64,000 nucleotides of DNA from an uncultured Bacteroidales bacterium (GCA_964646255.1 CAZYDI010000008.1:2184-66183), one strand, 5' to 3'. Counted from the first letter of the stretch, positions 7,605-48,391 are shown. A program made the numbers and translations. The notes: generated by a model not told the origin, from the letters alone.

Positions 7605-7610
7605 AAAAAA

Positions 7611-7634
7611 GGCTGTCTTTCAGGTAAGACAGCC
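7611..7634. terminator. Bidirectional hairpin terminator between convergent genes
   Basis: GGCTGTCTT (7611-7619) pairs with AAGACAGCC (7626-7634). It has an A-run upstream and a further A-run downstream after a short spacer. Confidence 0.55.
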
Positions 7635-7658
7635 TCCGTAATTTAGTCAGAAAAAAAA

Positions 7659-8399
7659 TTATTCACCTTTGTATTTGAAAACATCATCAGAAATTTCTCC
7701 GTTGAGTTCAATGGTTGAAAATGTAATTGCCTGTACACTTTGTCCTCCGATGCGTGTGTCAATCTTAAAAGGCATTATTAGGCCATCACCTGCATCCTGA
7801 TAATCACTGTAATATACGCTCATTTCCTGACCAGCCATTTGCCCGCCTTTTGGTGTTTGCTTAACCAGCACAGGCAGGTAGGTCTCGCTATCAAAATAAT
7901 ACGTGTATTCTAATTCTTCCTCAGCATTGCCCTTGTTTTTAATAAGCTTTACGATATAACAATTGATGCCGTCCACATCTTCAGTTCCCTCATAGGAAAT
8001 GGTACTGCCTTTCTTTGCATAGTCAATAAATACATCTTCAAAATCTGCTTCTGACTTGATTGTAGTGTATTGATCTTCCGGAAGCTTTTGTGGTGTTGAA
8101 CTTCCCATAAATGGATTGATTGTCCATGCTATTTCGCCATCATATGCCTGGGGAATGAGTTTCTGCCCCATAACATCAATACTGAGAAGCAACTTGTTTG
8201 GCGCTTTGCGAAACATTTCGAATGCGAAATCACCCTGCGGGGTTGGCACCGTACCTGCCAGTCGTGCAGTTTTTAGGGATTTCCATTTTTCAACACCGCC
8301 AATGTTTTTTAGATAGGTATTTACAATTTCATCAGCGTTTTGCGACCAGGCAGAAAAGGCAAATACTGAACATAAGATTGCCAAAAGGAGTTTTTTCAT
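7659..8399 (-). CDS. Hypothetical secreted protein (possibly LolA-like lipoprotein-sorting fold)
   Basis: Signal peptide MKKLLLAILCSVFAFSAWSQ. Long clean ORF. The family assignment is only a recollection of similar Bacteroidota proteins. Confidence 0.45.
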   Translation of the reverse strand: MKKLLLAILCSVFAFSAWSQNADEIVNTYLKNIGGVEKWKSLKTARLAGTVPTPQGDFAFEMFRKAPNKLLLSIDVMGQKLIPQAYDGEIAWTINPFMGSSTPQKLPEDQYTTIKSEADFEDVFIDYAKKGSTISYEGTEDVDGINCYIVKLIKNKGNAEEELEYTYYFDSETYLPVLVKQTPKGGQMAGQEMSVYYSDYQDAGDGLIMPFKIDTRIGGQSVQAITFSTIELNGEISDDVFKYKGE

Positions 8400-8555
8400 T
8401 GTATACGTTTTGATTGGTTAATAAACCTTCAAAGTTAATATAATGGAAGAGTTAGCTATTGTTTATTTAAAAATTAATTATTGCTGTAATGAATTTGACC
8501 CCTGGTCGTCTACCTATACAAGAACACTTGTCATTCAATTCTAAAAAATAATAAT

Positions 8556-9071
8556 ATGAGAAAAGTATTTGTAGCATTTGCAGCTCTGCTGATTTGCGGA
8601 AGCACATTCGGCCAGAAAGATTTCTTATCCGGTGTATTTGCAAAATATGCGGGACAAGAAGGGATAACCATGATAAATATTACCGGTGATATGCTTAAGC
8701 TTTGGGCCAATGCAGAACAGGAGAGGAGAGATACTGTTTTTACCTCCAAACTGACGGATATTAAAGTGATGGCATTGCAAAAGAACTGTGATAAGCCGGT
8801 TAACATCGATTTAATAACCGAGGTATACGACAAGCTGGATAAATCGGTTTACAAGGAGATGATCAACATCAAACAGAATGATGAAGATGTTCACATTCTT
8901 GTTCGTGAAGCCGGAAATCGCATTTCAGAAATTATTGTCATTGTTGGCGGTTTGAAGGAAAATGCACTGATTCATGTACAGGGTGACATGTTACTTAGTG
9001 AAATGGCTGATATGGCAGGCAAATTCCAAATGAAAGGGTTTGACTTCTCAAAGAATTTTGAAAAACAGTAA
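8556..9071 (+). CDS. DUF4252 domain protein
   Basis: Signal peptide plus the FAKYAGQEGITMINITGDMLKL motif, and IIVIVGGLKENALIHVQGDM, typical of DUF4252. It is adjacent to an ECF sigma factor gene. Confidence 0.7.
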   Translation: MRKVFVAFAALLICGSTFGQKDFLSGVFAKYAGQEGITMINITGDMLKLWANAEQERRDTVFTSKLTDIKVMALQKNCDKPVNIDLITEVYDKLDKSVYKEMINIKQNDEDVHILVREAGNRISEIIVIVGGLKENALIHVQGDMLLSEMADMAGKFQMKGFDFSKNFEKQ

Positions 9072-9101
9072 TTTTGGACTGCATCCCGATTAGCGGCCAT
9101 T

Positions 9102-9641
9102 ATGGATATATCCGGTTATAAAGAAAAGATTCTGCCCCTGAATGGAAGGTTATACAGGTATGCATTGATGATGCTGAAGGATCATGGAGAAGCACAGGAT
9201 GCTGTTCAGGAAGTATGTCTTAAATTATGGAAAATAAAGGATACGCTTGAAAATTATCAGAATATTGAATCTTTTGCCATTAAAGTGACCAAAAACTGGT
9301 GCCTTGATCGAATTAAACTGAAAAAACCGGTATATGTCAACAGCTATACATTATTATCCCCCGGCGACCATGCCAATGATCCATATAAGCGCCTGGAAAA
9401 TGAAGATCAATTAAAGTTTTTATTCCGCATTATGGATAAATTGCCTGACCAACAGCGCGATATAATTCAGCTGCGGGAAATAGAAAACCTGGAATTTGAA
9501 GAGATTGCTGAAATCCTTGAAATGAACATTAATGCGGTTCGTGTTAATTTATCGAGGGCAAGGCACAGGATTAAAGAAGAAATGCTAAAGTTTGAATCAC
9601 ATGAACATGCAAATAAAACACCTGGCGGAAAGGTATTTTGA
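9102..9641 (+). CDS. RNA polymerase ECF-type sigma-70 factor
   Basis: Region 2 (AQDAVQEVCLKLW) and region 4 (LPDQQRDIIQLREIENLEFEEIAEILEMNINAVRVNLSRARHRIK). Confidence 0.85.
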   Translation: MDISGYKEKILPLNGRLYRYALMMLKDHGEAQDAVQEVCLKLWKIKDTLENYQNIESFAIKVTKNWCLDRIKLKKPVYVNSYTLLSPGDHANDPYKRLENEDQLKFLFRIMDKLPDQQRDIIQLREIENLEFEEIAEILEMNINAVRVNLSRARHRIKEEMLKFESHEHANKTPGGKVF

Positions 9642-10152
9642 GGGCAATACAAGCCTTAGTGAAGAAATCCTTTTTAGGAAATACCTTTCCGAAACCGATG
9701 ATGGTGATCCGGAAATGGCAGCTTTGAAAAGACAATTCAACTTGTATGAAAGCCTAAGGACCATGAAGCCGGATGAGCAACTTCTTAACGACCGCATATT
9801 GGTATCCATAGAAAATTCCGCTTCTGCCACGCCGGTTAAAAAAACCGTCTTCCGGCGCTGGATGGTTGCCGCCTCTTTTTTGCTGCTGATGGGTGCCGGA
9901 ATATTGTACCTGTCCGTTAAAAATAACGATCTTAAGGATACCTATTCCGATCCAAACCTGGCGTATGTTGAAACCCGGAAGGCTCTTTTGCTTGTTTCAG
10001 CTTCAATGAATAAAGGCATCGAACCTTTATCGAATATCAATAAAATTAATTCTTCAACCCAGGAACTGCAAAACATCAATAAACTGGATAAGAGTCTTGA
10101 AATGCTGCAACTGGTGTCATTTATAAACCATTCGTCAAACATGAAAAAATAA
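9607..10152 (+). CDS. Putative anti-sigma factor / membrane protein
   Basis: It overlaps the end of the sigma gene. It has a single TM segment (WMVAASFLLLMGAGILYLSV) after an N-terminal cytoplasmic segment. The start is ambiguous (9592 or 9607). Confidence 0.5.
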   Translation: MQIKHLAERYFEGNTSLSEEILFRKYLSETDDGDPEMAALKRQFNLYESLRTMKPDEQLLNDRILVSIENSASATPVKKTVFRRWMVAASFLLLMGAGILYLSVKNNDLKDTYSDPNLAYVETRKALLLVSASMNKGIEPLSNINKINSSTQELQNINKLDKSLEMLQLVSFINHSSNMKK

Positions 10153-10156
10153 TTAT

Positions 10157-10681
10157 ATGAAAAGATGTGCATTTATTTCCGTTCTTATTCTGTTAGCCTG
10201 TAATACAGGTGCCCAGAGTATAATTGACAAGCTTTTTGATAAATACTCCGGAACTGAAGGTTATACTTCGGTTTATATTTCGAAATACATGTTCGACATG
10301 TTCCGTAGCAATAACACAGCTGAATCGGCCAGCGACGAAAATATGAATGCGGTTATCAGCAAGTTAACCGGGATAAAGATACTTGTTACCGACGATGACC
10401 CTGCTACTCCTGCTCCCGTTAATCTTTACAATGAGATGATGAAGTTATTGCCATCCTCTCCTTACAAGGAAATTATGGTAGTTAAAGAAAAAGACAAAAA
10501 TATTAAGTTTTATGTAAAGGAAAACGGCAACCGGGTTGCTGAGTTGCTCATGGTAATTGGTGGCAGTGATGAAAATGTGCTGATCAGCATCCAGGGGGAT
10601 ATCGATATGAAAAATATTTCAAAGCTTGCCAAAGGAATGAATATAGAGGGTATGGAGAACCTTGAAAAAATGGAGAATTAG
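10157..10681 (+). CDS. DUF4252 domain protein (second copy)
   Basis: FDKYSGTEGYTSVYISKYMFDMF and LLMVIGGSDENVLISIQGDI are paralogous in pattern to 8556-9071. Confidence 0.7.
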   Translation: MKRCAFISVLILLACNTGAQSIIDKLFDKYSGTEGYTSVYISKYMFDMFRSNNTAESASDENMNAVISKLTGIKILVTDDDPATPAPVNLYNEMMKLLPSSPYKEIMVVKEKDKNIKFYVKENGNRVAELLMVIGGSDENVLISIQGDIDMKNISKLAKGMNIEGMENLEKMEN

Positions 10682-11604
10682 ACTTCTTCATCAAATGGAT
10701 CAGACTTACGAAAATCGGGCCGGTAGGTGGCCGCACTTTTGAAGTCCTGTATCCATCCCTTGTAAAACCCCAAATCCTCCATGGCCTTAACCACCATGGA
10801 GTATTCTTTTTCCGCCAGCGTCCGGCTTAACTCAGGATGATGGTTTACTTCACTCGTTGGATAATACTGCGACATTAAGGAAATATGCAAGGAAGTTGAC
10901 AGATATTCAGCTATCCACTCGAGCATTTTTACCGACTCGGCAGCTCTGCCAGGCAATACAAGATGCCTTACAATTAAACCCGTTACTGCATAGTTATTAT
11001 CATTGATAACAAGGGTGCTGCCTTTCTGATGATACATTTCCCTGACGGCAGCGGCAGAAATTTCAGGATAACGGTATGCATCTGACCATTGTAAGGATGT
11101 AATGGCGTTTATGTATTTCAGGTCGGGAAGGTATACATCAATCAATCCTTCTAACGATTTGATAGCGTCGACGTTATCAAAACAGTTTGAATTATATATG
11201 GTAATGGGACTGTAGCCGTCTTTGCGGAGTTGTTGTATAATTTCTTTTACATGAGGTGTAAAATGAGAGGGACTTACAAAGCCCAGCGACTCGATTCCGC
11301 AATCCAGGAAGTGCTTAATCCGTGATACTGCCTCTTCCAATGTAAGGATACTTGAAATGCTGTTTTTTCTGCTTATTTGATGGTTCTGGCAATATAGGCA
11401 CCTGAGGTTGCATCCCGAAAAAAAAACATTACAGATGCCGTATTTACCGCTTATTGCAGGTTCCTCTCCCATATGCCGGCAAATTGAGGCGATTTCGTAT
11501 TTATCGCTTCTTCCGCAATACCCCTTTTGACCGGCATTGCGATTAACACCACACTCGCGCGGGCATATGGTGCAAAATTCCAGCTCCTCAAACCTATTTT
11601 CCAT
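10678..11604 (-). CDS. Radical SAM protein (PflX-like putative activating enzyme)
   Basis: CNLRCLYCQN CxxxCxxC radical SAM cluster motif, plus an N-terminal Cys-rich segment CTICPRECGVNR. Confidence 0.8.
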   Translation of the reverse strand: MENRFEELEFCTICPRECGVNRNAGQKGYCGRSDKYEIASICRHMGEEPAISGKYGICNVFFSGCNLRCLYCQNHQISRKNSISSILTLEEAVSRIKHFLDCGIESLGFVSPSHFTPHVKEIIQQLRKDGYSPITIYNSNCFDNVDAIKSLEGLIDVYLPDLKYINAITSLQWSDAYRYPEISAAAVREMYHQKGSTLVINDNNYAVTGLIVRHLVLPGRAAESVKMLEWIAEYLSTSLHISLMSQYYPTSEVNHHPELSRTLAEKEYSMVVKAMEDLGFYKGWIQDFKSAATYRPDFRKSDPFDEEV

Positions 11605-11677
11605 GCAGGTAAAAATATGGTTTTGGTTTCAATTTTTGTATATCAATAAATTTATCTTGCAGTTTTCGAAATATTGT

Positions 11678-11685
11678 TAAATTTG
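11678..11685 (+). promoter_or_regulatory. -7 promoter box TAAATTTG upstream of tRNA-Lys
   Basis: Matches TAnnTTTG and ends 11 nt before the tRNA 5' end. Confidence 0.4.
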
Positions 11686-11696
11686 CACCCTCTTTA

Positions 11697-11769
11697 CGGT
11701 CCGTAGCTCAGTTGGTAGAGCAATTGACTCTTAATCAATGGGTCCAGGGTTCGAATCCCTGCGGACCGA
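11697..11769 (+). tRNA. tRNA-Lys (anticodon CTT)
   Basis: Hand-folded cloverleaf: acceptor CGGTCCG/CGGACCG, D arm GCTC-AGTTGGTA-GAGC, anticodon arm ATTGA-CTCTTAA-TCAAT, T arm CAGGG-TTCGAAT-CCCTG. Confidence 0.9.
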
Positions 11770-11775
11770 CAAATT

Positions 11776-11802
11776 AAAGCCGCTTCAACAGCGGCTTTTT
11801 TT
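11776..11802 (+). terminator. Rho-independent terminator after tRNA-Lys
   Basis: AAAGCCGCT / AGCGGCTTT stem followed by a T-run. Confidence 0.7.
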
Positions 11803-11883
11803 ATGCCATGATGCTCCTGTGCCTGAAGAACAAAAGGCGAGAAGGGTTGTTATCCATTGGTTGTTTAACCCCCCTGATAAACC

Positions 11884-13776
11884 ATGGAACAACCTGCCCA
11901 AAATTGGTATTTCCCGCCGGAAAACCTGAAGGAAGGCGCAAACGTGCCTGAATACGAACAAACATACTATGATTCAATAAGAAATAAACAGCAGTTCTGG
12001 GCTAAACAGGCTGAACAACTGCATTGGTTTAAAAAATGGGACAAGGTGATTGATGCTTCCAATCCCCCCTTTTATAAATGGTTTGCCGGGGGAAAAACCA
12101 ACATAGTATACAATGCCATCGACCGCCATCAGCAGACAGCCAACAGAAATAAACTGGCCTTCATTTGGGAAGGAGAGCCCGGCGATCTCCGGACCTTCTC
12201 GTATCATGCGCTGAACCGCGAGGTTAGCCAGTTTGCCAACATCCTCAAAAGTATGGGTGTTAAAAAAGGTGATGTGGTAACCGTTTACATGCCCCAGATT
12301 CCCGAACAAATTTTCGCCATGCTGGCGTGTGCCAAAATAGGTGCAGTTCACAGTGTGGTATATGGAGGATTTAGCCATGAAGCACTGGCTGACCGAATTA
12401 ATGATGCAGCCAGCAGGGTTGTTATCACTGCCGATGGAGGCTACCGCAGGGGCAAGATTGTTGAATTAAAAAGCGTGGTGAATAAAGCCATGGAATTGTC
12501 ACCTACCATGGAGATATGCATTACGGTTAAAAGAACAGGGCAGGAGGTTTACATGGAAAATGACCGTGATTACTGGTATCACGATTTGAAAGCTTTGCCC
12601 ATTGCCGGCCATCGATGCGAAACTGAAGTGATGGATTCCGATGATATGCTGTTTTTACTGTATACATCAGGTTCAACCGGCAAACCGAAGGCAATTATGC
12701 ATACCCATGGCGGCTATAGCGTATACACTGCAGCCACGCTGCGTATGGTTTTTGATCTGAAGCCGGAAGACCGGTATTGGTGTGCTGCCGATCCGGGTTG
12801 GATTACCGGCCACAGCTACATAGTATATGGACCATTGATCAACGGTGCTACAATTATGCTTTATGAAGGCGCACCCAATCATCCTTACCCCGACAGGTGG
12901 TGGAAAATCATAGAAAAATATGGCATTAACATTTTATATACATCACCTACGGCCATCAGGGGACTTATGCGCTTTGGTGATTCATGGCCCCGTCGGAACG
13001 ACCTTAGTTCGCTACGCATACTGGGTTCGGTAGGAGAGCCCATAAACCCGGAGGCCTGGAAATGGTATTACAAGCATGTAGGACAAGAACGATGTCCGAT
13101 TATGGATACATGGTGGCAAACAGAAACCGGGGGATTCATGATATGTCCCTTGCCTGTTACACCCCTTCGCCCGGGCTCAGCAACACGTCCATTTTTTGGT
13201 ATTGAGGCAGGAATTGTAAACGACAATGGAGATGAAGTTAAACCAGGTGAGGAGGGCAACCTGGTTATAAAGAATCCCTGGCCTGGCCTGGCAGCAGGCG
13301 TTTACAAGGATCCTGCGCGCTTTGTTGAAACATACTGGGAGAAATACAAAAGTAAGGGTTGGTATTTTACAGGAGATTCGGCTAAAAAAGATGAAGAAGG
13401 TTATTTCTGGATCATCGGCAGGGTGGATGATGTTATTAAGGTGAGCGGATACAGGCTGGGAACTGCCGAAATAGAAAGTATCATGGCAGGGCATCCGGCT
13501 GTGGCTGAAGCTGCTGCAGTTGCCATTCCGCACGACTTAAAAGGGAGTGCCATTCACATATTTGTGCTGTTGCGTAAGGGATATGAAGGGTCAAAAGAAC
13601 TGGAAACCGAACTCATTAAACACATCGTTGACCATCTTGGCCCGATTGCCCGGCCTGAAGCTGTAATGATCGCGGATACACTGCCCAAAACCCGCAGTGG
13701 AAAAATTATGAGAAGAATACTAAAGGCACGTTTACTTGGCCTTCCGGTAGGTGATATGAGTACCCTTGAAGAATAA
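11884..13776 (+). CDS. acs: Acetyl-CoA synthetase (AMP-forming acetate-CoA ligase)
   Basis: Full-length Acs pattern: FYKWFAGGKTN, YTSGSTGKPKA, WWQTETGG, YFTGDSAKKDEEGYFWIIGRVDDVIKVSGYRLGTAEIES, PKTRSGKIMRR. Confidence 0.9.
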   Translation: MEQPAQNWYFPPENLKEGANVPEYEQTYYDSIRNKQQFWAKQAEQLHWFKKWDKVIDASNPPFYKWFAGGKTNIVYNAIDRHQQTANRNKLAFIWEGEPGDLRTFSYHALNREVSQFANILKSMGVKKGDVVTVYMPQIPEQIFAMLACAKIGAVHSVVYGGFSHEALADRINDAASRVVITADGGYRRGKIVELKSVVNKAMELSPTMEICITVKRTGQEVYMENDRDYWYHDLKALPIAGHRCETEVMDSDDMLFLLYTSGSTGKPKAIMHTHGGYSVYTAATLRMVFDLKPEDRYWCAADPGWITGHSYIVYGPLINGATIMLYEGAPNHPYPDRWWKIIEKYGINILYTSPTAIRGLMRFGDSWPRRNDLSSLRILGSVGEPINPEAWKWYYKHVGQERCPIMDTWWQTETGGFMICPLPVTPLRPGSATRPFFGIEAGIVNDNGDEVKPGEEGNLVIKNPWPGLAAGVYKDPARFVETYWEKYKSKGWYFTGDSAKKDEEGYFWIIGRVDDVIKVSGYRLGTAEIESIMAGHPAVAEAAAVAIPHDLKGSAIHIFVLLRKGYEGSKELETELIKHIVDHLGPIARPEAVMIADTLPKTRSGKIMRRILKARLLGLPVGDMSTLEE

Positions 13777-22086: not shown

Positions 22087-22160
22087 GCCTCTTTAGCTCA
22101 GCTGGTTAGAGCGGCGGTTTCGTAAACCGCAGGTCGGGGGTTCAAATCCCCTGAGAGGCT
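22087..22160 (+). tRNA. tRNA-Thr (anticodon CGT)
   Basis: Hand fold: acceptor GCCTCTT/GAGAGGC, D arm GCTC-AGCTGGTTA-GAGC, anticodon arm GCGGT-TTCGTAA-ACCGC, T arm GGGGG-TTCAAAT-CCCCT. Confidence 0.9.
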
Positions 22161-22164
22161 CGAT

Positions 22165-22236
22165 GCGGGAATAGCTCAGTTGGCAGAGCGAAAGCTTCCC
22201 AAGCTTTAGGTCGCGGGTTCGAATCCCGTTTCCCGC
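22165..22236 (+). tRNA. tRNA-Gly (anticodon CCC); CCA is encoded at 22237-22239
   Basis: Hand fold: acceptor GCGGGAA/TTCCCGC, D arm GCTC-AGTTGGCA-GAGC, anticodon arm AAAGC-TTCCCAA-GCTTT, T arm GCGGG-TTCGAAT-CCCGT. Confidence 0.9.
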
Positions 22237-22346
22237 TCCACTTCGCGGCTTCGCCATGGGCGGGGTCTCAGGCGCAAGGTGGTGTACCTGCCTGCAAGAA
22301 CGTTGTGCAGGCTGTATGCTTATCCAAACAGTTCAAAGCAGATTAT

Positions 22347-39022: not shown

Positions 39023-41203
39023 TTAATCTTTTACCAATAATTGCTGAATAATCCCGAACACTTTATCAAAGTTTGCCCTTGTTTCGTCGTCAAAGTCTTT
39101 GTACTGAAGATTATCCGCTTGCATTTTCTGATGAAAATCGCTTACCAGGATCATCCGTGATAAACTGTTTACATCGATGAACTCTGAATTCTTTACCGTA
39201 ATTCCTACCCGTTGTTTGAGGATGAAACGTTTGAAATCGATGGTTGAAAAGAGGTCCTCGACCGAAGCATATCCTTCAAGTACCTTAAAGCGTTTGCCAT
39301 TTCCGTCTCTTTGCGAATAAAGGGCAGTACTGTTGATAAATGTTATCAATTGTGCATTAGCCGGATTATCCATCAGGAGAACCGTAAAATCTATTTTCCA
39401 TCCCAGCATTATATTAGCGAGCAAAGGTACCTGTTCGGAACCCGAAGCAGGTATAAAATGCACAGGGTCTTTAAACCCGTATAAATGAGCCATTGCATCG
39501 AGGTAATGGAAAGTAATGGAATCTTCAACAATGAGGTTATTCTTTGGAAAAATAAACTGCCGGTCATTTAACCGTGTTCCCATAAGGGAATATATGGGTG
39601 AAAGGGTGTCAGCTGAAGCCTCATTCAGGCTCCGGGCATCCATTATTAACGTTTCGCTCTTCTCATCGGTTTCCTTTGCCCGTTGCACTGCGATAATCCT
39701 GTACAATTTTTTAAGATCGATCAGGTTAGGAGAATGGGTGCAATAAATAATCTGCATGCTCTCCCTTAAATCCTCAAAAACCTTAAGTACATCTTCCTGG
39801 GCCCTGGCGTGCAAACTTAATCCGGGTTCATCAATGAGCATAACCCTGTTGGCCCTTTTCTCTTTTGCTGTGGCTTTTAATTCAAGGTAAAATGAAAGAA
39901 ACCATCGAACACCACGGCTCCTTTGTTTAGGATAAAGGCGCTCCTGTTTATCCTTCACCCAAAACTCGAGGTAAGGTTTTCCGCTCTTTTCGGGGTGCGA
40001 ATAATCATAATGCTCAAGTTCAAAATTTATACGGATCTTGTCATTTTTACCAACGGTTTGTCTCCAGTAATCCTGGAAATCGATGGTAATTTCAGTATTC
40101 AGGTTCTCAATTTTTTGTTTAAGAATCCTGTGATTATCTTCCCTGAAGAAATCACCACTAAGTCCGGCCACCCGAAGGAAATTGCGGGCGGCTTTATACC
40201 CTTCGGCATGATTGTTTTCATTAAACAAATCGTCAAGGTCGATTTTATTGGGTAAGAGGCTGCTAAAATCCTCGAAAAACTCAAATATCGGGATATGCTG
40301 GAATACGGCATTACCAATATCTTCGGGTGATGCATAACCTCTTTCAATTGTATATTCCTGCACAGCCTCTTTCTCAGCATCCGTCATTTTTAAACCATCC
40401 AGCACTTTGCAGGCTGTTTTTCTGCTTATCAGCACCCGCTCGGAAATATGAACCAGTTCGGTGCTGATCTGTGCATTGATGCTGTTCAGCTTTTCAAGGT
40501 TTTTGGTTATTTTGCGGGCTAAGCGGTTATTCTTGCATACTTTTAACTGGTATTGGGCTTCCTTGATCTGTGAAATATTCACACCCAGTTCTTCCTTCAG
40601 TGTATTTTCCTGTGTCAGGAATGTCCGGAACTGTCTGCAAGCTTCCAGCTTTTCAGCAACCGACTGCAATTCTGCCTTTTTTTCGGCCAACAGGTTATCC
40701 GTTGAAACTGACATTTCCGGATCATTGATTTCCCTGGTTAACTTTTCGGCCTGCAATTCAAGTTGCGGAAAAATACTTTGAATTTTGTCGGTGTTTTCCG
40801 CTACGATATTGTTGAGCCGGATGAAAAAGTCAACCACCTGTTCTTCAGCCAGGGCAACAGAGCTATTCAAAGTGCTCTCCCACTTGCGTGAGACCGACAA
40901 CTCACTCATCGACCGAAATACCGGCTTCAATTCTTCAGGGATGGCGGTCAAATCCACATAATCAGCGAGGACTTTTCCATCATCCAGTTTGAAAGTGCAA
41001 ATAATTTCAGGAAAAGTAAGGTCGCTTCTCAGCACGTCATCGGTGATATTTCCTTCGTAGAAACTTCGTAATGCCTCAAGTACCGAGGTTTTACCCGATT
41101 CATTCTGTCCGATTAATGCAGTAATATAGTCGGGAGATAGAAAGCATTTCCGCGAATCAATGATAGAACGGTAGTTTTTAATCTGAAAAGCGATGATTTT
41201 CAT
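39023..41203 (-). CDS. ABC/SMC-like ATPase with a coiled-coil insertion and a C-terminal Toprim-like region (OLD-family-nuclease-like architecture)
   Basis: Walker A GQNESGKTS (res 32-40); a charged, heptad-like helical insertion at about res 120-290; signature-like QRSRGVRWFLSF (427-438); Walker B VMLIDEPG (454-461); CTHSP (488-492). The C-terminal region has LIVEDSITF, IPASGSEQ, VLLMDNP and VLEGYASVEDL, reminiscent of OLD Toprim motifs. Confidence 0.7.
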   Translation of the reverse strand: MKIIAFQIKNYRSIIDSRKCFLSPDYITALIGQNESGKTSVLEALRSFYEGNITDDVLRSDLTFPEIICTFKLDDGKVLADYVDLTAIPEELKPVFRSMSELSVSRKWESTLNSSVALAEEQVVDFFIRLNNIVAENTDKIQSIFPQLELQAEKLTREINDPEMSVSTDNLLAEKKAELQSVAEKLEACRQFRTFLTQENTLKEELGVNISQIKEAQYQLKVCKNNRLARKITKNLEKLNSINAQISTELVHISERVLISRKTACKVLDGLKMTDAEKEAVQEYTIERGYASPEDIGNAVFQHIPIFEFFEDFSSLLPNKIDLDDLFNENNHAEGYKAARNFLRVAGLSGDFFREDNHRILKQKIENLNTEITIDFQDYWRQTVGKNDKIRINFELEHYDYSHPEKSGKPYLEFWVKDKQERLYPKQRSRGVRWFLSFYLELKATAKEKRANRVMLIDEPGLSLHARAQEDVLKVFEDLRESMQIIYCTHSPNLIDLKKLYRIIAVQRAKETDEKSETLIMDARSLNEASADTLSPIYSLMGTRLNDRQFIFPKNNLIVEDSITFHYLDAMAHLYGFKDPVHFIPASGSEQVPLLANIMLGWKIDFTVLLMDNPANAQLITFINSTALYSQRDGNGKRFKVLEGYASVEDLFSTIDFKRFILKQRVGITVKNSEFIDVNSLSRMILVSDFHQKMQADNLQYKDFDDETRANFDKVFGIIQQLLVKD

Positions 41204-41224
41204 TCAATATCCTGGTTTATTTGG

Positions 41225-42049
41225 TTAGCTGGATTTAGGATAGCGAAAACCAAATATTAATACGTCATCTAATTGTTCCAGGTTGCCTTTCCAATTGTTA
41301 AAAGTTTGTTCGATAGTCTTTTTCTGTTCTTTCATGGGTAAAGAACTTATCTGAGTCAGCATTTCCCGGAAGGGTTTATACTTAAATTTTCGGTTGGAAG
41401 CACCACCAAATTGGTCAACAAACCCATCAGTAAACAAATAAATGGTATCCTCAGGATTTAACTCATATAAATGGGTTGTGAAACATAATTCCTCTTCAGC
41501 ACCAACACCCACGGGCATCATATCACCCGCAATTTCCATCAGGTTACCATCACGTACAATGTAAACCGGATTAAAAGCGCCGGCAAAACTTAAAAGATTG
41601 GCTTTCTGGTCGACAATGCACAGCGCCAGGTCGATTCCGTCCTTACGTTCAGAATCATCGCCAGTCTGGCACAATGCATCCATAACATGTTCCCGCATCT
41701 GGTTCAGAATGGAACCTGCACTTGAAAAAGATCCGTGCGCGATAATCTCGTTTAGGAAAGTAATACCAAGAATACTCATTAAAGCGCCGGGAACTCCGTG
41801 GCCGGTACAATCACCCACACATACGATAACCTGGTTATTTTTGCGCGAAACGAAATAAAAGTCTCCACTCACCACCTCACGGGGCTGATAAAACACAAAA
41901 TTTTCGGGAAGTATTCTGTTAATCTGATTTTCAGAAGGAAATATCGCCTGCTGAATATAACTGGCTACCCTTAAGCTTTCGGAATTATAATGCTCGGCTT
42001 TCCGGTCAACCACTTGATTTTCTTTTTCTTGTCTCCTATAACTTTTCAT
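41225..42049 (-). CDS. Stand-alone SpoIIE/PP2C-family serine/threonine phosphatase
   Basis: VSGDFYF, GDCTGHGVPGALMS, KDGIDLAL, LFTDGFVDQFGG. I see no TM, sensor or receiver domain. The stop is 21 nt from the ATPase start. Confidence 0.85.
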   Translation of the reverse strand: MKSYRRQEKENQVVDRKAEHYNSESLRVASYIQQAIFPSENQINRILPENFVFYQPREVVSGDFYFVSRKNNQVIVCVGDCTGHGVPGALMSILGITFLNEIIAHGSFSSAGSILNQMREHVMDALCQTGDDSERKDGIDLALCIVDQKANLLSFAGAFNPVYIVRDGNLMEIAGDMMPVGVGAEEELCFTTHLYELNPEDTIYLFTDGFVDQFGGASNRKFKYKPFREMLTQISSLPMKEQKKTIEQTFNNWKGNLEQLDDVLIFGFRYPKSS

Positions 42050-42168
42050 CTGAAACGATTTGGATATACAATATCTTATACTGAAATATCCAATAAATGT
42101 TTAGCTTTTCTTACAAAACGAAACAAGAAACGCAATATTATATAATCTCCCCCGGATAAACAGCCGCC

Positions 42169-44160
42169 TTAAAATTGAACTCCGCGGTTCTTAACCAGAA
42201 TAACTTCTTTATCACCCGAAACCAGCAGTAAGTTATTCTTCCGGTCGATGGCCATATCAGTGAAAGCACATCCATCGGGCAGCTGTGAAGCAGAAACCAG
42301 TTCACATGTTTGCGTGTTTACCCAATACAATAATTGTCGATTTTCATACGCAATTAACGCTACAAGTTGATTCCGGCCGGCAACAATAACATCAACAACC
42401 GTTGCCTGCATTACTGGAAGAGGTATGGTTTTTTCGGTAAGGGTTTTATTTTCACCTGATGTGCGGGTAACAACCACACTGTTTTTGTTGCGGTATCCCA
42501 GATAAACGATTTCACCGTTGGGCATGATATGGGCCGATACAATGCTATCAGCAGGATTAAAGGCCGATTCCCATAAAAGATAACCACGCGGGTCAATTTT
42601 TGCCCGCCAGTGATTACCTGCCAGCAGCATATTATGGTCAGCAAACTCAGCAATGTCAATAATTTCCCCTTTTCCGGTGTATGTTCTGCCCCATTGCCTT
42701 CTACCCTGCTTGTTAAGCACTACTATAGAATATAAACGCTGAAGAGAATCATTGACAACATAGCCACCAAGGAAAATATTCCCGGACCGGGCAGGAGCCA
42801 AATCATTAACGAAAAAACGACCCATTTTTTTGCTCCATATTTTGGTTCCATCAACACCAAGTTTAAAGATCCATGTTTCACGTGAGGATGAATCCATTCC
42901 GCTCCACGTATAGCCAGCGCCAATGATTTCATTCTGAAAATTGATATCCATCAGCGAAATTTCGTCATTATAACCCTCACCAATGGTTTTATTCCAAACC
43001 ATCTTCCCTTCGGCATCAGTTTTAATAATCCACACATCAGTAAAACCGGTATCCGGCTTGAATACAGTACTTGCAAGGTAATAAGCATTCAGGGAATCGA
43101 TTCCGGCGCATGCATTCAGTTCAACCAGTGCTTCATCCTCAAAACACCTTGCCCATTCTATGTTGGCAGAAGGCAATGTATGGGTAGCAATGAATCGCAT
43201 ACCTTTTTCCCGGGCTTTAAGGTTGAATATATCAATATATTGCTGACCGTCGGGGTATTTTCGTATAAACTCGTTGTAGGCCTCGAGGGATTGAATTCTT
43301 TTGGCATACTCATAAAGCAACTGCTTTTGAATAATTTTGGCCTCGGCAATTTCAAGGGCATCCGGATAAGATGCAATAAACCGATCGAATGCCTGCACTG
43401 TGTTTTCAGTTTTTGCCTGGCCAAAAGCAACTTTATGGAGGCTTTTAATGGCCTGGTTTATATCATCAGCATCAGGGTACTGATCCATATAATCCTCATA
43501 AGCCTTAACAGTGTTAATTTTCCTTGCATTGTCAAAAGCCAGGCGGTTCCGGTACCGGATTGCCTTTTCAACCTGGGCGGCTTCCGGAAATTTTTCAATA
43601 AAGGTTACATAAGCTTCAAGCGTATTTTGCTTTTCATATTTTCGGAATTCGAGCTGGTTACGAATGTGAATAACATTGTCATAATACCTGAAATCGGGGA
43701 ATTCTTTCAAAACAGCATATACCACATCGAGATTGTTTTCTTCCCTCACATACTTGATCAGCTTGGCCTCCACTGTTTCCAGCGCATATTCAATTTTCTT
43801 TTTAACCGGCCTACTGATATGCCTCGTCTCAGTGTTATAAAAATATTCGCCAATGTACTCCAGTTCCTCTGCAGAGAACTTTTCGACAAGCGGTTTAAGC
43901 TGACAGGCATATTTCCAGGCACCAATAAGATCGAAAAAAGATGAAGAATCATCGGCCATAATAAGGGTAAGGCCAAGGAGTGCAGCTGCATTATCATTGT
44001 TCTCAGCCAGTGCCGATTTAAACTGTTCCATTGATTTTTGATAATCGCTTTTCTCGAGCGTTTTAAATCCCCTCTTGGTATTCTGTGCAAAAGCAACGGA
44101 AGCGTTAATGGCTAAAAAACCTATTAAGAGACTAAAGATTCGTATACATCGGTAACGCAT
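42169..44160 (-). CDS. Secreted repeat protein: N-terminal helical TPR-like repeats and C-terminal beta-propeller-like repeats
   Basis: Signal peptide. There are four or more copies of a ~37-aa unit (..AY..FI..YP......A......LAF..A). The C-terminal half has repeated G..(I/V)W motifs (WIIKTDAEGKMVWNK, WIFKLGVDGTKIWSK, LNKQGRRQWGR, IDPRGYLLWES). Confidence 0.55.
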   Translation of the reverse strand: MRYRCIRIFSLLIGFLAINASVAFAQNTKRGFKTLEKSDYQKSMEQFKSALAENNDNAAALLGLTLIMADDSSSFFDLIGAWKYACQLKPLVEKFSAEELEYIGEYFYNTETRHISRPVKKKIEYALETVEAKLIKYVREENNLDVVYAVLKEFPDFRYYDNVIHIRNQLEFRKYEKQNTLEAYVTFIEKFPEAAQVEKAIRYRNRLAFDNARKINTVKAYEDYMDQYPDADDINQAIKSLHKVAFGQAKTENTVQAFDRFIASYPDALEIAEAKIIQKQLLYEYAKRIQSLEAYNEFIRKYPDGQQYIDIFNLKAREKGMRFIATHTLPSANIEWARCFEDEALVELNACAGIDSLNAYYLASTVFKPDTGFTDVWIIKTDAEGKMVWNKTIGEGYNDEISLMDINFQNEIIGAGYTWSGMDSSSRETWIFKLGVDGTKIWSKKMGRFFVNDLAPARSGNIFLGGYVVNDSLQRLYSIVVLNKQGRRQWGRTYTGKGEIIDIAEFADHNMLLAGNHWRAKIDPRGYLLWESAFNPADSIVSAHIMPNGEIVYLGYRNKNSVVVTRTSGENKTLTEKTIPLPVMQATVVDVIVAGRNQLVALIAYENRQLLYWVNTQTCELVSASQLPDGCAFTDMAIDRKNNLLLVSGDKEVILVKNRGVQF

Positions 44161-44164
44161 AACA

Positions 44165-45565
44165 TTATTTTTTTATCAGTAAAAATTCCACCCTGCGGTT
44201 TCGCGCCCGGCCTTCTTCAGAAGCATTGGTTTCTACCGGCCTGGATTCTCCATAACCAACCGAACGGAGCCTGTCACGATTAATGCCTTGCGATGCCAGG
44301 TAATTAATAACTTCAGCCGCCCTGCCTTCTGATAATTTTTGATTATACGCATCACTTCCTTCATTATCGGTATGCCCCGAAATTTCGATAAGGTCAATAT
44401 CTTCTTCGAGCATAAACTGAACAACCTTGTTGAGCTCAGCATATGAGGCAGGTAAAAGCACTGTTTTATTAAACTCAAAGAAAATGTTCTCGAGAACCAC
44501 CGCTGCTCCTTCATCAATGGCTTTTAGCCCTTCGAGAAAATCATCCTTTTCAATAACCGGTTCAACAAACACAACCGTATCCGATGACCTGCAATTAAAT
44601 TTATCAGACGCCCTGTAAATATATGTACCGGCAGGAAGGTTTTTAAGCTCATTGCCTGTCATCCGGTTATTCCAGGCAACTGAATAAGGAGGAGAGCCAC
44701 CCAGCAGGCCAACACGGATCATTCCATCGTTTACAATCCTTTTAACCTTCCCTGTAACCGGATCAAGACCACCGGAATACCGTGCCTCTATGATACGGCT
44801 TTCAAAATCGTGTTTAACACAGGGGCAATCGAGACAATTCTCAAGCGGAGAAACCGAGAAATCATCAAAAAAATAATAGGCATACGCTTTATTTCTCAGG
44901 TTAACCACATTTTTATCCGTCACCACATAATTGGTCTGGTCATAATTCCGGAAATTGCCAACCACCATAAAACGTTCATAACCCGAAGCAGTGTAAACAG
45001 TGCAGAACTCCTCCCATTCATCGATATTATCGAGAAAAAGACCAACCTTATTGGTAATCTGTGGCGTATAGGCCAGGTTCACATTGATATCGTTTTTAAT
45101 CTCCACATCACTGAAATACACACTCATCTGGTCAACCGCGAACCGCGAATAAGATGCAAGCTTATAATAGAACCTGACACAATACTGTTGGCCCTTAATT
45201 AATGGAACAGCAAGAGTTCCCTGTATATACTCACGATAACTCTCCTCCGTACCGCTTAAAATAGCCCCGACATATCCGTCACCACCGTGCGGCTCACTAA
45301 CGCCGGCGAAATTTTTAGGAACACCAACATTCCGCGGACTGCAGCGATTAAAATAATCAGGCGTTGCCCTGGTTGGATAAGTCCATCCAGGAACCAGTTT
45401 ATGGGTTAAATTTTCAGGCGTATAATCCTGCGGGCATTTCTCAAATTTTTCAAATCCCGGGTTTTGAACCAGGTTCTTTTCCTGGGCCTTAACCTGAATC
45501 ATGCAAAACAGCAGAATAAAAGCGATGGTTGAAAAGTAAAAATGCGACATAACCTTGAGATTCAT
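44165..45565 (-). CDS. OmpA-family protein with a SprB-like repeat and a C-terminal OmpA/MotB peptidoglycan-binding domain
   Basis: The C-terminus FEFNKTVLLP...ISGHTDNEGSDAYNQKLSEGRAAEV...GYGESRPV...NRRVEF is a canonical OmpA_C. GGSPPYSVAWNNRMTG...LPAGTYIYRASD resembles a SprB repeat. A signal peptide is present. Confidence 0.8.
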   Translation of the reverse strand: MNLKVMSHFYFSTIAFILLFCMIQVKAQEKNLVQNPGFEKFEKCPQDYTPENLTHKLVPGWTYPTRATPDYFNRCSPRNVGVPKNFAGVSEPHGGDGYVGAILSGTEESYREYIQGTLAVPLIKGQQYCVRFYYKLASYSRFAVDQMSVYFSDVEIKNDINVNLAYTPQITNKVGLFLDNIDEWEEFCTVYTASGYERFMVVGNFRNYDQTNYVVTDKNVVNLRNKAYAYYFFDDFSVSPLENCLDCPCVKHDFESRIIEARYSGGLDPVTGKVKRIVNDGMIRVGLLGGSPPYSVAWNNRMTGNELKNLPAGTYIYRASDKFNCRSSDTVVFVEPVIEKDDFLEGLKAIDEGAAVVLENIFFEFNKTVLLPASYAELNKVVQFMLEEDIDLIEISGHTDNEGSDAYNQKLSEGRAAEVINYLASQGINRDRLRSVGYGESRPVETNASEEGRARNRRVEFLLIKK

Positions 45566-46608
45566 TTTTGTAATAAATAGCGGGCTACTGCTTTATTTAT
45601 CCTTCTTACAAGGAATGGTCCATCATATATAAATCCGGTATATACCTGAACGAGCGAAGCACCAGCTTTAAGCATATCAATCGCATCACTGGCTTCCATA
45701 ATTCCACCTACCCCGATGACCGGCAATGTATTATTGGTTTGTTTACATATGTAACGTACTATTTCAAGGCTTCTGTTTTTGAGGGGTTGACCGCTTAATC
45801 CCCCTGCGCCGGTATTGAATATTGTATATTCATCTGTATTAAGGCATGTCCTGTCGGTGGTGGTATTGGTAGCAATTATCCCATCCAGGCCAGATGCTTT
45901 ACATAAATTGATTGTTTCGTCAATTTGTTTGAACGTCAGGTCGGGTGAAATTTTCAGGAAGACAGGTTTATACGGTGTTTTTAGCTTGCGGGCGTCAGTA
46001 AGCCTGAGTAAAATATCCCCAAGTGCTTCCTGGCTTTGCAGCAAATGCATATCCTTAATATTAGGACAACTCACGTTCACAGTAAAATAGTCGACATTAT
46101 TGTATAAGGCATCAAAGCACCGGAGATAATCATCCACTGCTTTATCGTTACCGGTAAGGGTATTTTTCCCGATATTCCCACCTATAACCAGGTTTTTAGG
46201 TTTTCCTTTACCAAGTTGTGCTGCTGCATGTTGAACCCCCTTGTTATTAAATCCCATCCGGTTAATCAGCGCCTTGTCAGCCGGCAGGCGAAATAACCTT
46301 GGAGATGGATTTCCCGGCTGGGCAACAGGGGTAACTGTTCCGACTTCAATAAAAGAAAACCCAAACATGGAAAATTCCCTGTAGAAATCCGCATTTTTAT
46401 CAAAACCAGCCGCCAGTCCCACCCTGTTACTGAAAGTAAGTCCGGCCACCGTGGTACCAAGAACAGGATGATGATAACTGATAAGCTTTCGCATAATAGT
46501 CAATGCACCTGGGAAATACGACAAAAACTTAACCATTACAACAACCAGGCCATGCACCTTTTCAGGATCAATCAGGAATAATACAGGTCTAATCAGTCTT
46601 TTATACAT
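45562..46608 (-). CDS. pyrD: Dihydroorotate dehydrogenase (quinone), class 2
   Basis: PVGLAAGFDKNA-like NRVGLAAGFDKNA, EVGTVTP, NRMGFNN, NIGKN, VNVSCPN, KISPDL, ATNTT, GGLSG, GVGGI. Confidence 0.9.
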   Translation of the reverse strand: MYKRLIRPVLFLIDPEKVHGLVVVMVKFLSYFPGALTIMRKLISYHHPVLGTTVAGLTFSNRVGLAAGFDKNADFYREFSMFGFSFIEVGTVTPVAQPGNPSPRLFRLPADKALINRMGFNNKGVQHAAAQLGKGKPKNLVIGGNIGKNTLTGNDKAVDDYLRCFDALYNNVDYFTVNVSCPNIKDMHLLQSQEALGDILLRLTDARKLKTPYKPVFLKISPDLTFKQIDETINLCKASGLDGIIATNTTTDRTCLNTDEYTIFNTGAGGLSGQPLKNRSLEIVRYICKQTNNTLPVIGVGGIMEASDAIDMLKAGASLVQVYTGFIYDGPFLVRRINKAVARYLLQK

Positions 46609-47069
46609 TACTTTCCAATCCGTTCATTAATGTTCCTTGGTTGGTCGAAAATTTCATAACCACCATCCGAATATAGTAAAATAATGCGGGTAACGTATGA
46701 TACATTTGTAACTTGATTGGTTGTTTCCATTTGTAACGCTGATTTGGGTGCATGGTTGGAAAAATTATCTGTTTTTTCTGAGAACAGGTTGCCCTGTAAG
46801 GCAGATTTACCATACACTGGGGGGGGGTCACTTTTAACAGTACTTTCATCAATGGTTGGTGATGAAAAAGCATTGCCTCTGCCCAGTAAAAGCCAATCTG
46901 CATTGATTTCAGGATATCGCACAAGCAATTTACTCAGAAAATCATACGATGGTTGATTGCGGCCACTTAGGATATGTGAAATTCCCGAACGTTGCACGTT
47001 AATCTCATCAGCCAACCGGGTTGCTGAAAGATTGAGTGCATTCAACAGATACTGGATACGGTCCTTCAT
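46608..47069 (-). CDS. XRE-type helix-turn-helix transcriptional regulator (HTH plus uncharacterised C-terminal region)
   Basis: LSATRLADEINVQRSGISHILSGRNQPSYDFLSKLL is an HTH_3-type motif. Its stop overlaps the pyrD start by 1 nt (TAATG). It contains a C9 run on the coding strand (G9 on the + strand at 46819-46827). Confidence 0.75.
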   Translation of the reverse strand: MKDRIQYLLNALNLSATRLADEINVQRSGISHILSGRNQPSYDFLSKLLVRYPEINADWLLLGRGNAFSSPTIDESTVKSDPPPVYGKSALQGNLFSEKTDNFSNHAPKSALQMETTNQVTNVSYVTRIILLYSDGGYEIFDQPRNINERIGK

Positions 47070-47458
47070 GTTACATATGTAATTTGGATTGGTGTTTACA
47101 GTTATAACGCTTACGGTTTACAATAGTAATATTAGTTATTTTTTACCCAATCACATAGGCAAGGGACTATTTTTTCGTTAGGCTCTGGTACAAGAAATGC
47201 ATAAATTAACTTAAACTAAAACTTATTTAAATGCAATAAAATAACTGATTATTAATTAAATATACAGTTATTGTTAACATTTAATTGATTGTTTATGGTT
47301 TAAATTGGATTTTGCTTAAATAAAAACTTTACCGGTGATATTTATAATATTGGTTATCAGAGGTATAACTACATAAAAATAGACGGTTTATAAATATGAA
47401 AAATGGCAGTATATGCTCATTTCAGGTTATGAACCTATAAATGCAGAGGGTAAAAATT

Positions 47459-48391
47459 TCAGGAAGGAAATTGCTCGTTATAAACCACGTTTATGCTTAG
47501 TGGTAGAATGCTGAATTCGATCGGTGAATGCCCCAGGGATTCACCATCGGCTTCAAGATGAATAAGTGGATCGGAATCGATGATAATATCTTTACCCCGA
47601 AAACCAACAATGCGTGGATGATTTAACAGGGTTCCATTATAAAGCATTTTAAGACTTTTGATTACATCCCCCTTGCTTATTTTTTTGATGATGGTGATAT
47701 CAAACAGTCCATCGTCGGGTATGGCATTTGGGGTTTGCATCATTCCCCCACCGGAATACTTTCCAATTCCGATGCTTATGGTAAATACATCGTCATGTAC
47801 AACGGATCCGTCGATTTCAACAGATACTTTTGTATGCGTGTATGCCAGCAGGCTTCGTAAAAGATTAACCATATAAACAAACTTTCCGTTTCTTCCTTTG
47901 TCTTTCTGGTTGTTGGTCCGCTTTACTACTACTGCATCAAATCCAAGCCCGGCTATATTGATAAAGTAACGTGATGTTCTTGTTGTTCCATGGTAGTAAA
48001 GTACCTTCCCTGCATCCTGAAGGCGATACAATCCCCTGCTGACTATTTTAACTGCACTCTCATAATGCTGAGGAATTCCAAACAGCTTGCCCCAGTCGTT
48101 CCCGGTACCAACAGGTATCATGGCAAGGGTAATGCTTTGGGTACTGCAATAATCCTGGGTGAATGCTCCATTTACCACTTCATTCATTGTACCATCACCG
48201 CCAACAACGATTATGTTGCGGTATCCTTTTGAGATATAAAGCCTGGTTAAGGCTATGGCATGACACCGGACCTCGGTAAATACTTCGGTAAAACTTATCT
48301 GATGTTGCCTGAGCAGCATCGAAATTACCTTCCAGTCTTTTCTTCCCTTGCCGTTGCCGGCGTTTGGATTTATAATGACAAGCCAGTCCAC
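47459..48391 (-). CDS. Diacylglycerol/lipid kinase family protein (YegS/BmrU-like)
   Basis: IINPNAGNGKG, VVGGDGTMNEVVNG, PVGTGNDW. It starts at GTG. Confidence 0.85.
   Translation of the reverse strand: MDWLVIINPNAGNGKGRKDWKVISMLLRQHQISFTEVFTEVRCHAIALTRLYISKGYRNIIVVGGDGTMNEVVNGAFTQDYCSTQSITLAMIPVGTGNDWGKLFGIPQHYESAVKIVSRGLYRLQDAGKVLYYHGTTRTSRYFINIAGLGFDAVVVKRTNNQKDKGRNGKFVYMVNLLRSLLAYTHTKVSVEIDGSVVHDDVFTISIGIGKYSGGGMMQTPNAIPDDGLFDITIIKKISKGDVIKSLKMLYNGTLLNHPRIVGFRGKDIIIDSDPLIHLEADGESLGHSPIEFSILPLSINVVYNEQFPS

Follow-up and report, generated by a model that had tools for sequence, protein, structure and literature searches.

Two neighbouring genes at positions 39,023 to 42,049 of a 64,000-nucleotide stretch of DNA from an uncultured Bacteroidales bacterium (GCA_964646255.1 CAZYDI010000008.1:2184-66183; the whole stretch is called the window below) encode a stand-alone PP2C phosphatase and an OLD-like ABC ATPase. 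Our data demonstrate that they are a genuine conserved two-gene module of environmental Bacteroidales, with a pairing that goes beyond chance: an OLD-derived ATPase-(pseudo)Toprim protein together with an obligate PP2C partner. With a probability of about 0.45, we read the module as a lineage-fixed operon in which a domesticated OLD-derived ATPase would serve as a sensor or switch and signal through the phosphatase. An initial annotation of the window had proposed two co-directional genes of 274 and 726 amino acids (aa), 21 nucleotides (nt) apart, and both open reading frames (ORFs) were confirmed. The pair is laid out as follows, with positions counted from the first letter of the window and structures taken from AlphaFold2 (AF2) models:

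42050-42168, minus strand: spacer upstream of the PP2C gene, 119 nt
41225-42049, minus strand: PP2C gene (SpoIIE/RsbU/SiaA-type), 274 aa; catalytic domain with N-terminal linker helix
41204-41224, minus strand: spacer from the PP2C stop codon to the ATPase start codon, 21 nt
39023-41203, minus strand: ATPase gene (AAA_15/OLD-like ABC ATPase), ORF of 726 aa
40850-41203, minus strand: ATPase N-terminal lobe, aa 1-118; Walker A GQNESGKTS (K38), AAA_15/SMC_N/AAA_23 matches
40301-40849, minus strand: coiled-coil insertion, aa ~119-301; AF2 helices, alignment gaps
39719-40300, minus strand: ATPase C-terminal lobe, aa 302-495; FEFFEDFSSLLPNKIDL...QRSRGVRWFLSF, VMLIDEPG (D458/E459), H-loop THSP (H490)
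39548-39718, minus strand: conserved linker, aa 496-552; ASxDTLSPIYSLMG
39023-39547, minus strand: putatively Toprim-derived alpha/beta domain and C-terminal helical bundle, aa 553-726, with stop codon

Evidence for the module comes from its recurrence. The ATPase has 1755 database relatives, the closest of which (~775 aa, 46-67% identity) all stem from Bacteroidales metagenome-assembled genomes, and when GTDB was scanned with a single genome for each species, a relative turned up in at least 411 species; the pair is also present in many sediment and wetland metagenomes. The neighbourhoods of 80 loci were fetched, of which 77 include upstream DNA and three begin at a contig edge. A PP2C orthologue is located immediately upstream of the ATPase gene on the same strand in all 77, so that the census of PP2C neighbours suggested by the initial annotation gave a uniform answer. 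Upon clustering of the neighbouring genes, phosphatase and ATPase emerged as the sole constant unit, set in at least six lineage-specific flanking contexts.

The two genes are probably co-transcribed. The gap between them has a median of 32 nt and stays below 90 nt in 62 of 75 loci, and sigma-70 and terminator scans of the 21-nt spacer in the window gave promoter and terminator signals at chance level. In the 119-nt spacer upstream of PP2C, which may harbour an internal promoter, the terminator scan found no terminator. At least 16 other loci have an oppositely oriented gene ahead of PP2C, and therefore the pair can be transcribed independently. A conserved promoter at this position was considered and dropped, as the Bacteroidota -7 motif TAnnTTTG is weakly enriched (13 of 67 upstream regions versus 7.6 +/- 2.7 expected) and the sigma-70 scan remained at chance.

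The phosphatase matches Pfam SpoIIE over residues 72-269 (E=2.4e-21, 77 bits versus a cutoff of 25 bits) and carries the metal motifs GDFYF (D63), GDCTGHG (D80), DGID (D137/D139), TDG (D208) and LDD (D261/D262), with the catalytic Asp motifs at least 95% conserved among 76 orthologues. Pfam revealed no further domain beyond SpoIIE, and we detected no sensor, receiver, transmembrane segment or signal peptide; on the intact metal site as well as on the missing sensor the initial annotation was right. The NCBIfam SiaA model (NF038263) aligns through profile positions 406-657 only (E=1.9e-51), with a score of 175 versus an equivalog cutoff of 700. In an exhaustive search at E<=1e-30, relatives were found in 20,392 representative clusters, and a handful of ~275-aa matches within these are the orthologues. 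The next-best matches are C-terminal domains of proteins of 400-1500 aa with 44-50% identity, which in the sampled cases belong to TPR-PP2C and Reg_prop/Y_Y_Y-PP2C sensor proteins. Many alignments to these sensor proteins extend back to query residues 2-10 and therefore support the earlier view that the protein begins with a linker helix. Judged by these similarities, the phosphatase of the window is the output domain plus linker helix of a very large sensor-phosphatase family, with its own sensor absent. This family of TPR-/Reg_prop/Y_Y_Y-sensor phosphatases comprises more than 20,000 clusters at 50% identity, and one giant relative (P0197, 1522 aa) combines two PP2C domains with TPR repeats.

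For the second gene, profile comparisons point to an OLD/AriA-like ATPase. The protein matches Pfam AAA_15 over residues 1-495 (E=5.4e-26) and also AAA_21. In PADLOC, AriA is the best match (4.2e-26) and spans the whole AAA_15 head, followed by Old (2.8e-22), whose alignment extends to residue 599, and by weaker matches to PtuA and GajA (1e-10 to 1e-15). The PADLOC check proposed in the initial annotation thus succeeded for the ATPase, whereas the phosphatase had no match. Among PDB sequences, AriA (8ux9, with the AriA chains on top) and OLD (6p74) were matched over the C-terminal lobe. An alignment of 21 sequences has Walker A (G32-S40), the signature-like QRSRGVRWFLSF, D458/E459 of Walker B and H490 as invariant elements, and the FEFFEDFSSLLPNKIDL...QRSRGVRWFLSF block of the C-terminal lobe is very highly conserved. 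Both the split ABC ATPase head and the OLD-like layout described initially are consistent with these results. The motif ASxDTLSPIYSLMG of the adjoining linker also occurs in plasmid and phage OLD-like relatives in the outgroup alignment.

The insertion, first described as coiled-coil-like and ~170 aa long, corresponds to residues ~119-301 (~180 aa), which AF2 models as long helices (121-159, 169-222, 226-268 and 273-288) with a predicted local distance difference test (pLDDT) score near 90. Column conservation is ~0.35 in the coiled coil versus 0.8-0.9 in the ATPase head. The spacing between Walker A and Walker B amounts to 420 aa in the window protein, to a median of 471 aa in the family and to 268-346 aa in outgroups that have no PP2C. 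The coiled coil of the window is the shortest of the family because two deletions, visible as alignment gaps at columns 160-190 and 202-222, flank the apex of the hairpin. The deletions remove 31 and 21 aa, one per hairpin arm, and would keep the arms in register. The second ATPase lobe is poorly modelled in the full-length AF2 structure (pLDDT 30-50), and for this reason the Foldseek matches of this structure are only generic (SMC, cohesin, Rad50 and OLD, including 6p74).

The C-terminus was modelled with a pLDDT of 78 and a beta-alpha-beta-alpha-beta-alpha-beta topology, followed by a helical bundle. Pfam yielded no match in this part, OLD-like_TOPRIM included, a family profile had no match among PDB sequences, and the Foldseek matches of the model to PDB and BFVD were not significant. 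A direct Toprim assignment was dropped on these grounds, and bridging via plasmid relatives alone worked. The plasmid relatives reach 21-25 bits with Pfam OLD-like_TOPRIM (cutoff 23.2), and hhalign aligns the family profile with an Exiguobacterium plasmid OLD-like protein at 92% probability, in a region that Pfam OLD-like_TOPRIM matches with 25 bits. This alignment pairs NNLIVEDSITFHYL with NNLLVEGPADLIYI, and VLLMDN with CLLDSFTD. Of the Toprim-like C-terminus in the initial annotation, only a remote homology with indirect support is left, whereas the direct searches gave no significant match. A profile search with the domain for other architectures returned fragments of the same family only.

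The published catalytic set of OLD nucleases comprises E377/D431/D433 for metal A, D381/S478/E480 for metal B and R487 (PMC7049728). We placed the corresponding positions by a joint sequence alignment with the PP2C-less outgroups. In the window protein, E560 and D561 follow beta-1, and the canonical DxD position reads M611-D612-N613. While E560 is conserved in 84% of 76 family members, the combination E560, D611 and D613 is complete in 20 of them, which read LDDDxxG like the phage outgroup, and the canonical DxD is gone in 56, the window protein among these. According to the alignment, the window protein thus lacks the full metal-A triad of a canonical OLD nuclease (E560 kept, M611/N613); E560, which the initial annotation had chosen as the Toprim catalytic control, is the residue with only 84% conservation. 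At the metal-B positions, sequence alignment only places T564 where an Asp is expected (D381 of the Thermus scotoductus (Ts) protein), and S647 and E649 are present. A conserved motif, E649-D650-x2-S653-x2-D656-x-K658, has these residues nearly invariant across the family, and the invariant K658 is plausibly equivalent to the catalytic Arg/Lys (Ts R487). As the DxD was lost while the rest of the ATPase stays conserved, the Toprim metal site seems to be dispensable for the conserved role. By analogy with STAS proteins, S/T587 (IPA[ST]G) was considered as a PP2C-specific phosphosite and dropped, since PP2C-less phage relatives read ATG at this position.

Distant relatives of the ATPase give a hint about its origin. 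At 24-36% identity, they are found on plasmids of Bacillus, Lactococcus, Exiguobacterium and Streptomyces, adjoining recombinase, integrase or ssb genes. Two further relatives from phage contigs in IMG/VR (L084, 4779-6866, and L085, 1102-2982; 35-36% identity) are solitary genes in high-GC genomes; one of them lies moron-like between lambda-type portal and capsid genes, and the other adjoins a tape-measure gene and has a DUF4145 gene before it. No PP2C gene was found near the plasmid or phage relatives. These PP2C-less proteins measure 575-695 aa, most of them retain the Toprim motifs vEGxxD and DxDxxG, and the insertion of the PP2C-linked family is 125-200 aa longer than theirs. Since the mobile relatives are solitary, shorter and devoid of PP2C, we read the PP2C-linked clade as a chromosomal offshoot that is derived from them, with class-1-like OLD genes as its starting point.

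In contrast to such mobile relatives, the pair is embedded among core genes, which in the window include gyrA, clpB, pyrD and the genes for diacylglycerol (DAG) kinase and an amino-acid permease. Across the 80 genomes, each lineage has housekeeping genes on the flanks of the pair, with clusters for RlmN, PurB, NfeD, DnaQ-GIY-YIG, sugar-binding, OmpA/TolB-like, SSB, G6PD, racemase and transporter proteins; the homologue check for defence islands, which the initial annotation had suggested, accordingly turned out negative. No integrase, transposase or known defence gene occurs in these flank clusters. Besides, no vWA or Ser/Thr kinase gene is present among the window neighbours or the conserved flank clusters, and no helicase, reverse transcriptase (RT) or AriB-like gene in the neighbourhood of the pair. 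Pairwise identities of the ATPase correlate with those of flanking genes (Spearman 0.46-0.83), and the mean identities over the same genome pairs are 0.54 for the ATPase, 0.47 for PyrD and 0.57 for RlmN. In these comparisons the pair looks vertically inherited and the ATPase constrained at a housekeeping-like rate.

The composition of the pair is native to the genome. Its GC content of 0.41-0.42 lies within the window range of 0.38-0.47, and the composition profiles thereby rule out the AT-richness that the initial annotation had seen by eye, and with it a foreign origin on this ground. The lowest values nearby (0.34-0.35 at 46500-47500) belong to the intergenic region between a helix-turn-helix (HTH) gene and the DAG kinase gene, outside the pair. 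As the initial annotation stated, neither an integrase nor a tRNA flanks the pair in the window, the nearest tRNA being more than 16 kb away. Upstream neighbours and the housekeeping RNAs of the window are:

46608-47069, minus strand: HTH gene
45562-46608, minus strand: pyrD
44165-45565, minus strand: OmpA466 gene, weak SprB repeat match
42169-44160, minus strand: TPR663 gene, signal peptide present
22087-22240: tRNA-Thr(CGT)/tRNA-Gly(CCC) pair, housekeeping RNAs far from the pair
11697-11770: tRNA-Lys(CTT), housekeeping RNA far from the pair
1357-1708, plus strand: RNase P RNA, class A, 199 bits, far from the pair

Stop and start codons of HTH, pyrD, OmpA466 and TPR663 overlap or nearly abut in the window (42169-47069). 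This order is kept in the 15-20 closest fetched species loci and represents an odd operon-like mixture, with a gene of pyrimidine biosynthesis beside envelope proteins.

Loss of the pair was followed by searching metagenomes with the upstream TPR663 gene as query, and it looks rare. Close relatives with room downstream all carry the pair with one exception, in which a clean, AT-rich spacer of 325 nt replaces the 3.7-kb pair (L102, Ga0105092_10001738, 7560-8320, and the 79% identical L098). The synteny of these two contigs resembles the window, with csp, DAG kinase, HTH, pyrD, OmpA466 and TPR663, followed by a convergent amino-acid permease; the TPR663 gene of L102 has an in-frame TAG codon at ~7612. 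Both genes are missing together, and therefore the pair is gained or lost as one unit and is dispensable. More distant TPR663 contexts have ordinary genes at the site of the pair, again with one exception. In L148 (Ga0209692_10002290, 8071-12257), a distant TPR663 homologue is directly followed, on the opposite strand, by genes for a type II methyltransferase, its restriction-enzyme counterpart of type II and a HEC-04-like AAA_15 ATPase. This small defence cluster stands at the position which the pair occupies elsewhere and gives one isolated hint that defence cargo can be accommodated there.

Taken as a domesticated signalling operon, the module would have evolved from solitary, mobile ATPase-Toprim genes of the class-1 OLD type on phages and plasmids. 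Within a Bacteroidales clade, a sensor-less PP2C gene would have been acquired directly upstream, the coiled-coil insertion of the ATPase enlarged by about 125-200 aa, and the metal-A DxD of the Toprim domain would have decayed in about three quarters of the lineages, that of the window included. In AriA, GajA and PtuA, the ABC ATPase serves as a sensor or scaffold that controls a partner enzyme. By analogy to these systems, the ATPase of the pair could be an ATP-driven sensor or switch. Sensor domains provide the regulatory input in cis in the nearest relatives of the PP2C; the ATPase would deliver such input in trans, probably through the N-terminal linker helix of the phosphatase or through its dimerisation. 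We favour such a regulation in trans because AriA, GajA and PtuA control their partners and because the phosphatase retains the regulated linker helix. The output would then be the PP2C. Its substrate might be a Ser/Thr phosphoprotein whose gene lies in another part of the genome, with a partner-switching (STAS-type) component as the most plausible candidate, or else the ATPase, so that in the window lineage the module would signal instead of cleaving DNA. For most lineages, nuclease chemistry would have ceased to be the output.

With an OLD ancestry, the module most likely responds to a cue related to nucleic acids or infection. Ancestry favours phage infection in this respect, while an endogenous DNA or stress cue would fit better with the long-term fixation and the housekeeping-like evolution. 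The chromosomal class 1 OLD protein YbjD of E. coli has phage phenotypes that require the ATPase and not the Toprim domain (PMC13261556), and with this precedent the two readings of the trigger are not mutually exclusive.

Several points speak against a domesticated signalling operon. The Toprim homology is remote and depends on one profile alignment at 92% probability and on weak Pfam matches in relatives. The metal-A triad is complete in 20 of 76 members, and nuclease activity may still matter in this part of the family; moreover, the near-invariant E649, D650, D656 and K658 could support an altered catalysis without DxD. The flank clusters contain no conserved STAS, RsbW or Ser/Thr kinase gene near the pair. 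Finally, vertical inheritance is suggested by identity correlations, and we infer the physical coupling of phosphatase and ATPase, the direction of signalling, the substrate and the trigger.

The best-placed alternative, which we nevertheless regard as unlikely, is a classical OLD anti-phage or abortive-infection system of a fifth class with an ATPase-Toprim nuclease as effector and PP2C as its regulator; for example, the phosphatase could hold the nuclease in an inactive, dephosphorylated state until a kinase of phage or host origin acts on it. Such a role would fit the best PADLOC matches (AriA, Old, PtuA and GajA), nearest outgroups that are phage morons and plasmid accessory genes, and a two-gene operon arrangement typical for defence systems. 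The members with a complete metal-A triad, the restriction-modification (R-M) pair with the HEC-04-like ATPase that takes this site behind TPR663 in L148, the dispensability of the pair in the L102/L098 lineage and the presence of PP2C in the TerY-P triad (PMC10542128) can also be cited in its favour. However, the DxD is gone in 56 of 76 members including the window, with the remaining protein strongly constrained, and the operon includes no kinase for the proposed switch. In addition, PADLOC gave no match for the PP2C, the flanks of the pair are free of defence and mobile genes in 80 genomes, and the locus is stable across lineages in which PyrD is only ~47% identical, with an ATPase that evolves at a housekeeping-like rate. 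Of the novel defence module in the initial annotation, the conserved PP2C-ATPase unit (77 of 77 loci) thus holds, whereas missing defence islands, loss of the DxD and vertical inheritance count against its function in defence. A defence role is possible by ancestry, and the genomic context gives no sign of one: 80 genomes, one clean loss and one R-M lineage leave a defence-island reading unsupported. Domesticated stress or infection signalling is in our view more likely than a classical abortive-infection nuclease.

It is improbable, though worth considering, that the pair is a domesticated housekeeping module unrelated to phages, in which an SMC/Rad50-like ATPase would monitor DNA or the nucleoid, possibly the envelope, and PP2C would relay the signal to sigma-factor partner switching. 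Long-term vertical inheritance at a housekeeping-like rate, a PP2C from a signalling family and a head that matches SMC, cohesin and Rad50 structures would agree with this idea, as would the operon-like linkage with HTH-pyrD-OmpA466-TPR663 in ~42 of 77 loci. Yet profile searches specifically recover an OLD/AriA-like ATPase over an SMC/Rad50-like one, and the closest ATPase outgroups are mobile elements. Nearly half of the lineages have also given up the envelope-gene linkage and still keep the pair, and the clean loss in one lineage implies that the pair is non-essential.

Finally, it is hardly credible that, as the initial annotation offered as its alternative, PP2C works with the upstream OmpA466 and TPR663, next to an ATPase that has nothing to do with it and is a solitary, class-1-like OLD protein: these two genes are indeed directly upstream on the same strand in ~42 of 77 loci including the window, but PP2C accompanies the ATPase in every locus, including the 35 with other or opposite-strand upstream genes, L102/L098 keep OmpA466 and TPR663 without PP2C and ATPase, and TPR663 has a signal peptide, whereas PP2C has neither signal peptide nor transmembrane segment. 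No genome with TPR663-PP2C but without the ATPase was found. A split TPR-sensor phosphatase made of TPR663 and PP2C was likewise ruled out, as TPR663 is secreted and PP2C stays with the ATPase where TPR663 is missing.

In relation to known systems, the partner gene defines the class of an OLD protein: class 1 proteins stand alone, those of class 2 go with GajB, a UvrD-like helicase, those of class 3 belong to retrons with their RT and non-coding RNA, and class 4 is split into AriA and AriB (PMC10568477). A PP2C partner fits none of these four classes, and the initial statement that no described OLD class has one agrees with the literature searched. To our knowledge, the output enzyme of the known OLD classes always acts on nucleic acids or nucleotides. 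In the literature searched, we found no OLD or AAA_15 ATPase paired with a PP2C, and the pairing is apparently undescribed. One figure legend names a PADLOC candidate system with a PP2C, whose partners are not readable there (10.1101/2024.01.29.577857), and the sole PP2C-containing defence module found in our search is the TerY-P triad (vWA, PP2C and Ser/Thr kinase), which is tied to nucleic-acid-targeting conflict systems (PMC10542128).

A strictly conserved PP2C partner would add both an OLD class and an output chemistry. It would also point to a function for a gene pair that has none assigned and was confirmed in 77 species representatives, and the pair offers a handle on the regulation of sensor-less PP2C phosphatases in trans. 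We can only tentatively go one step further and propose an OLD-family system of a fifth, so far undescribed kind, in which an ABC ATPase sensor of the immune type would have exchanged its nuclease for a phosphatase output and become fixed as a core, vertically inherited locus in a large clade. Infection or DNA perturbation would then be answered by dephosphorylation signalling without nucleic-acid cleavage, and the pair would be a documented case of a defence gene domesticated into cellular signalling.

The individual comparisons show how far the likeness goes in each case. With the TerY-P triad the pair shares a PP2C within the module, but it has no vWA or kinase gene nearby and its PP2C no PADLOC match. 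Gabija (GajA/GajB) and Septu (PtuA/PtuB) likewise combine an AAA_15-type ATPase with an adjacent partner gene, and GajA also has a Toprim domain; in contrast, the pair contains no UvrD-like helicase or HNH partner, and the models of both systems match its ATPase only around Walker B and the signature motif. The sensor phosphatases RsbU, SpoIIE and SiaA have the same SpoIIE catalytic domain with intact metal site, including the C-terminal similarity to SiaA (1.9e-51), and the output domains of TPR-/Reg_prop/Y_Y_Y-phosphatases are 44-50% identical including the linker helix. Unlike these proteins, the PP2C of the pair has no sensor, transmembrane or HAMP region, and instead of adjacent STAS or kinase genes, of which none were found, its constant neighbour is an OLD-like ATPase.

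PARIS (AriA and AriB) provides the best PADLOC match (4.2e-26) and the top PDB sequence match through AriA, and places an ABC ATPase sensor over a separately encoded effector enzyme, as is proposed for the pair. However, its partner is a DUF4435/Toprim nuclease and not a PP2C, the ATPase of the pair carries an apparently degenerate Toprim domain fused in cis, and PARIS resides in phage and satellite hotspots, whereas the pair is chromosomal and seems to be inherited vertically. Class 1 OLD proteins (P2 Old, Thermus scotoductus OLD and E. coli YbjD/OldB) resemble the ATPase in being a single polypeptide of ABC ATPase, helical dimerisation insert and, putatively, C-terminal Toprim-type domain, in the PADLOC match to Old (2.8e-22) and in the matches to 6p74 by sequence and fold. 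Solitary as they are, the outgroups from plasmids and phages resemble typical class 1 genes, and YbjD is a chromosomally fixed OLD that can act without its Toprim domain (PMC13261556). In contrast to class 1, which is solitary by definition, the pair always includes a PP2C, its ATPase family has an insertion 125-200 aa longer than that of PP2C-less relatives, and the window protein reads M611/N613 for Ts D431/D433 and T564 for Ts D381 and has no Pfam OLD-like_TOPRIM match. From mobile and solitary proteins with an intact Toprim, via PP2C-linked members with an intact DxD, to PP2C-linked members without DxD, the family thus offers a natural series for studying how host physiology recruits an immune module.

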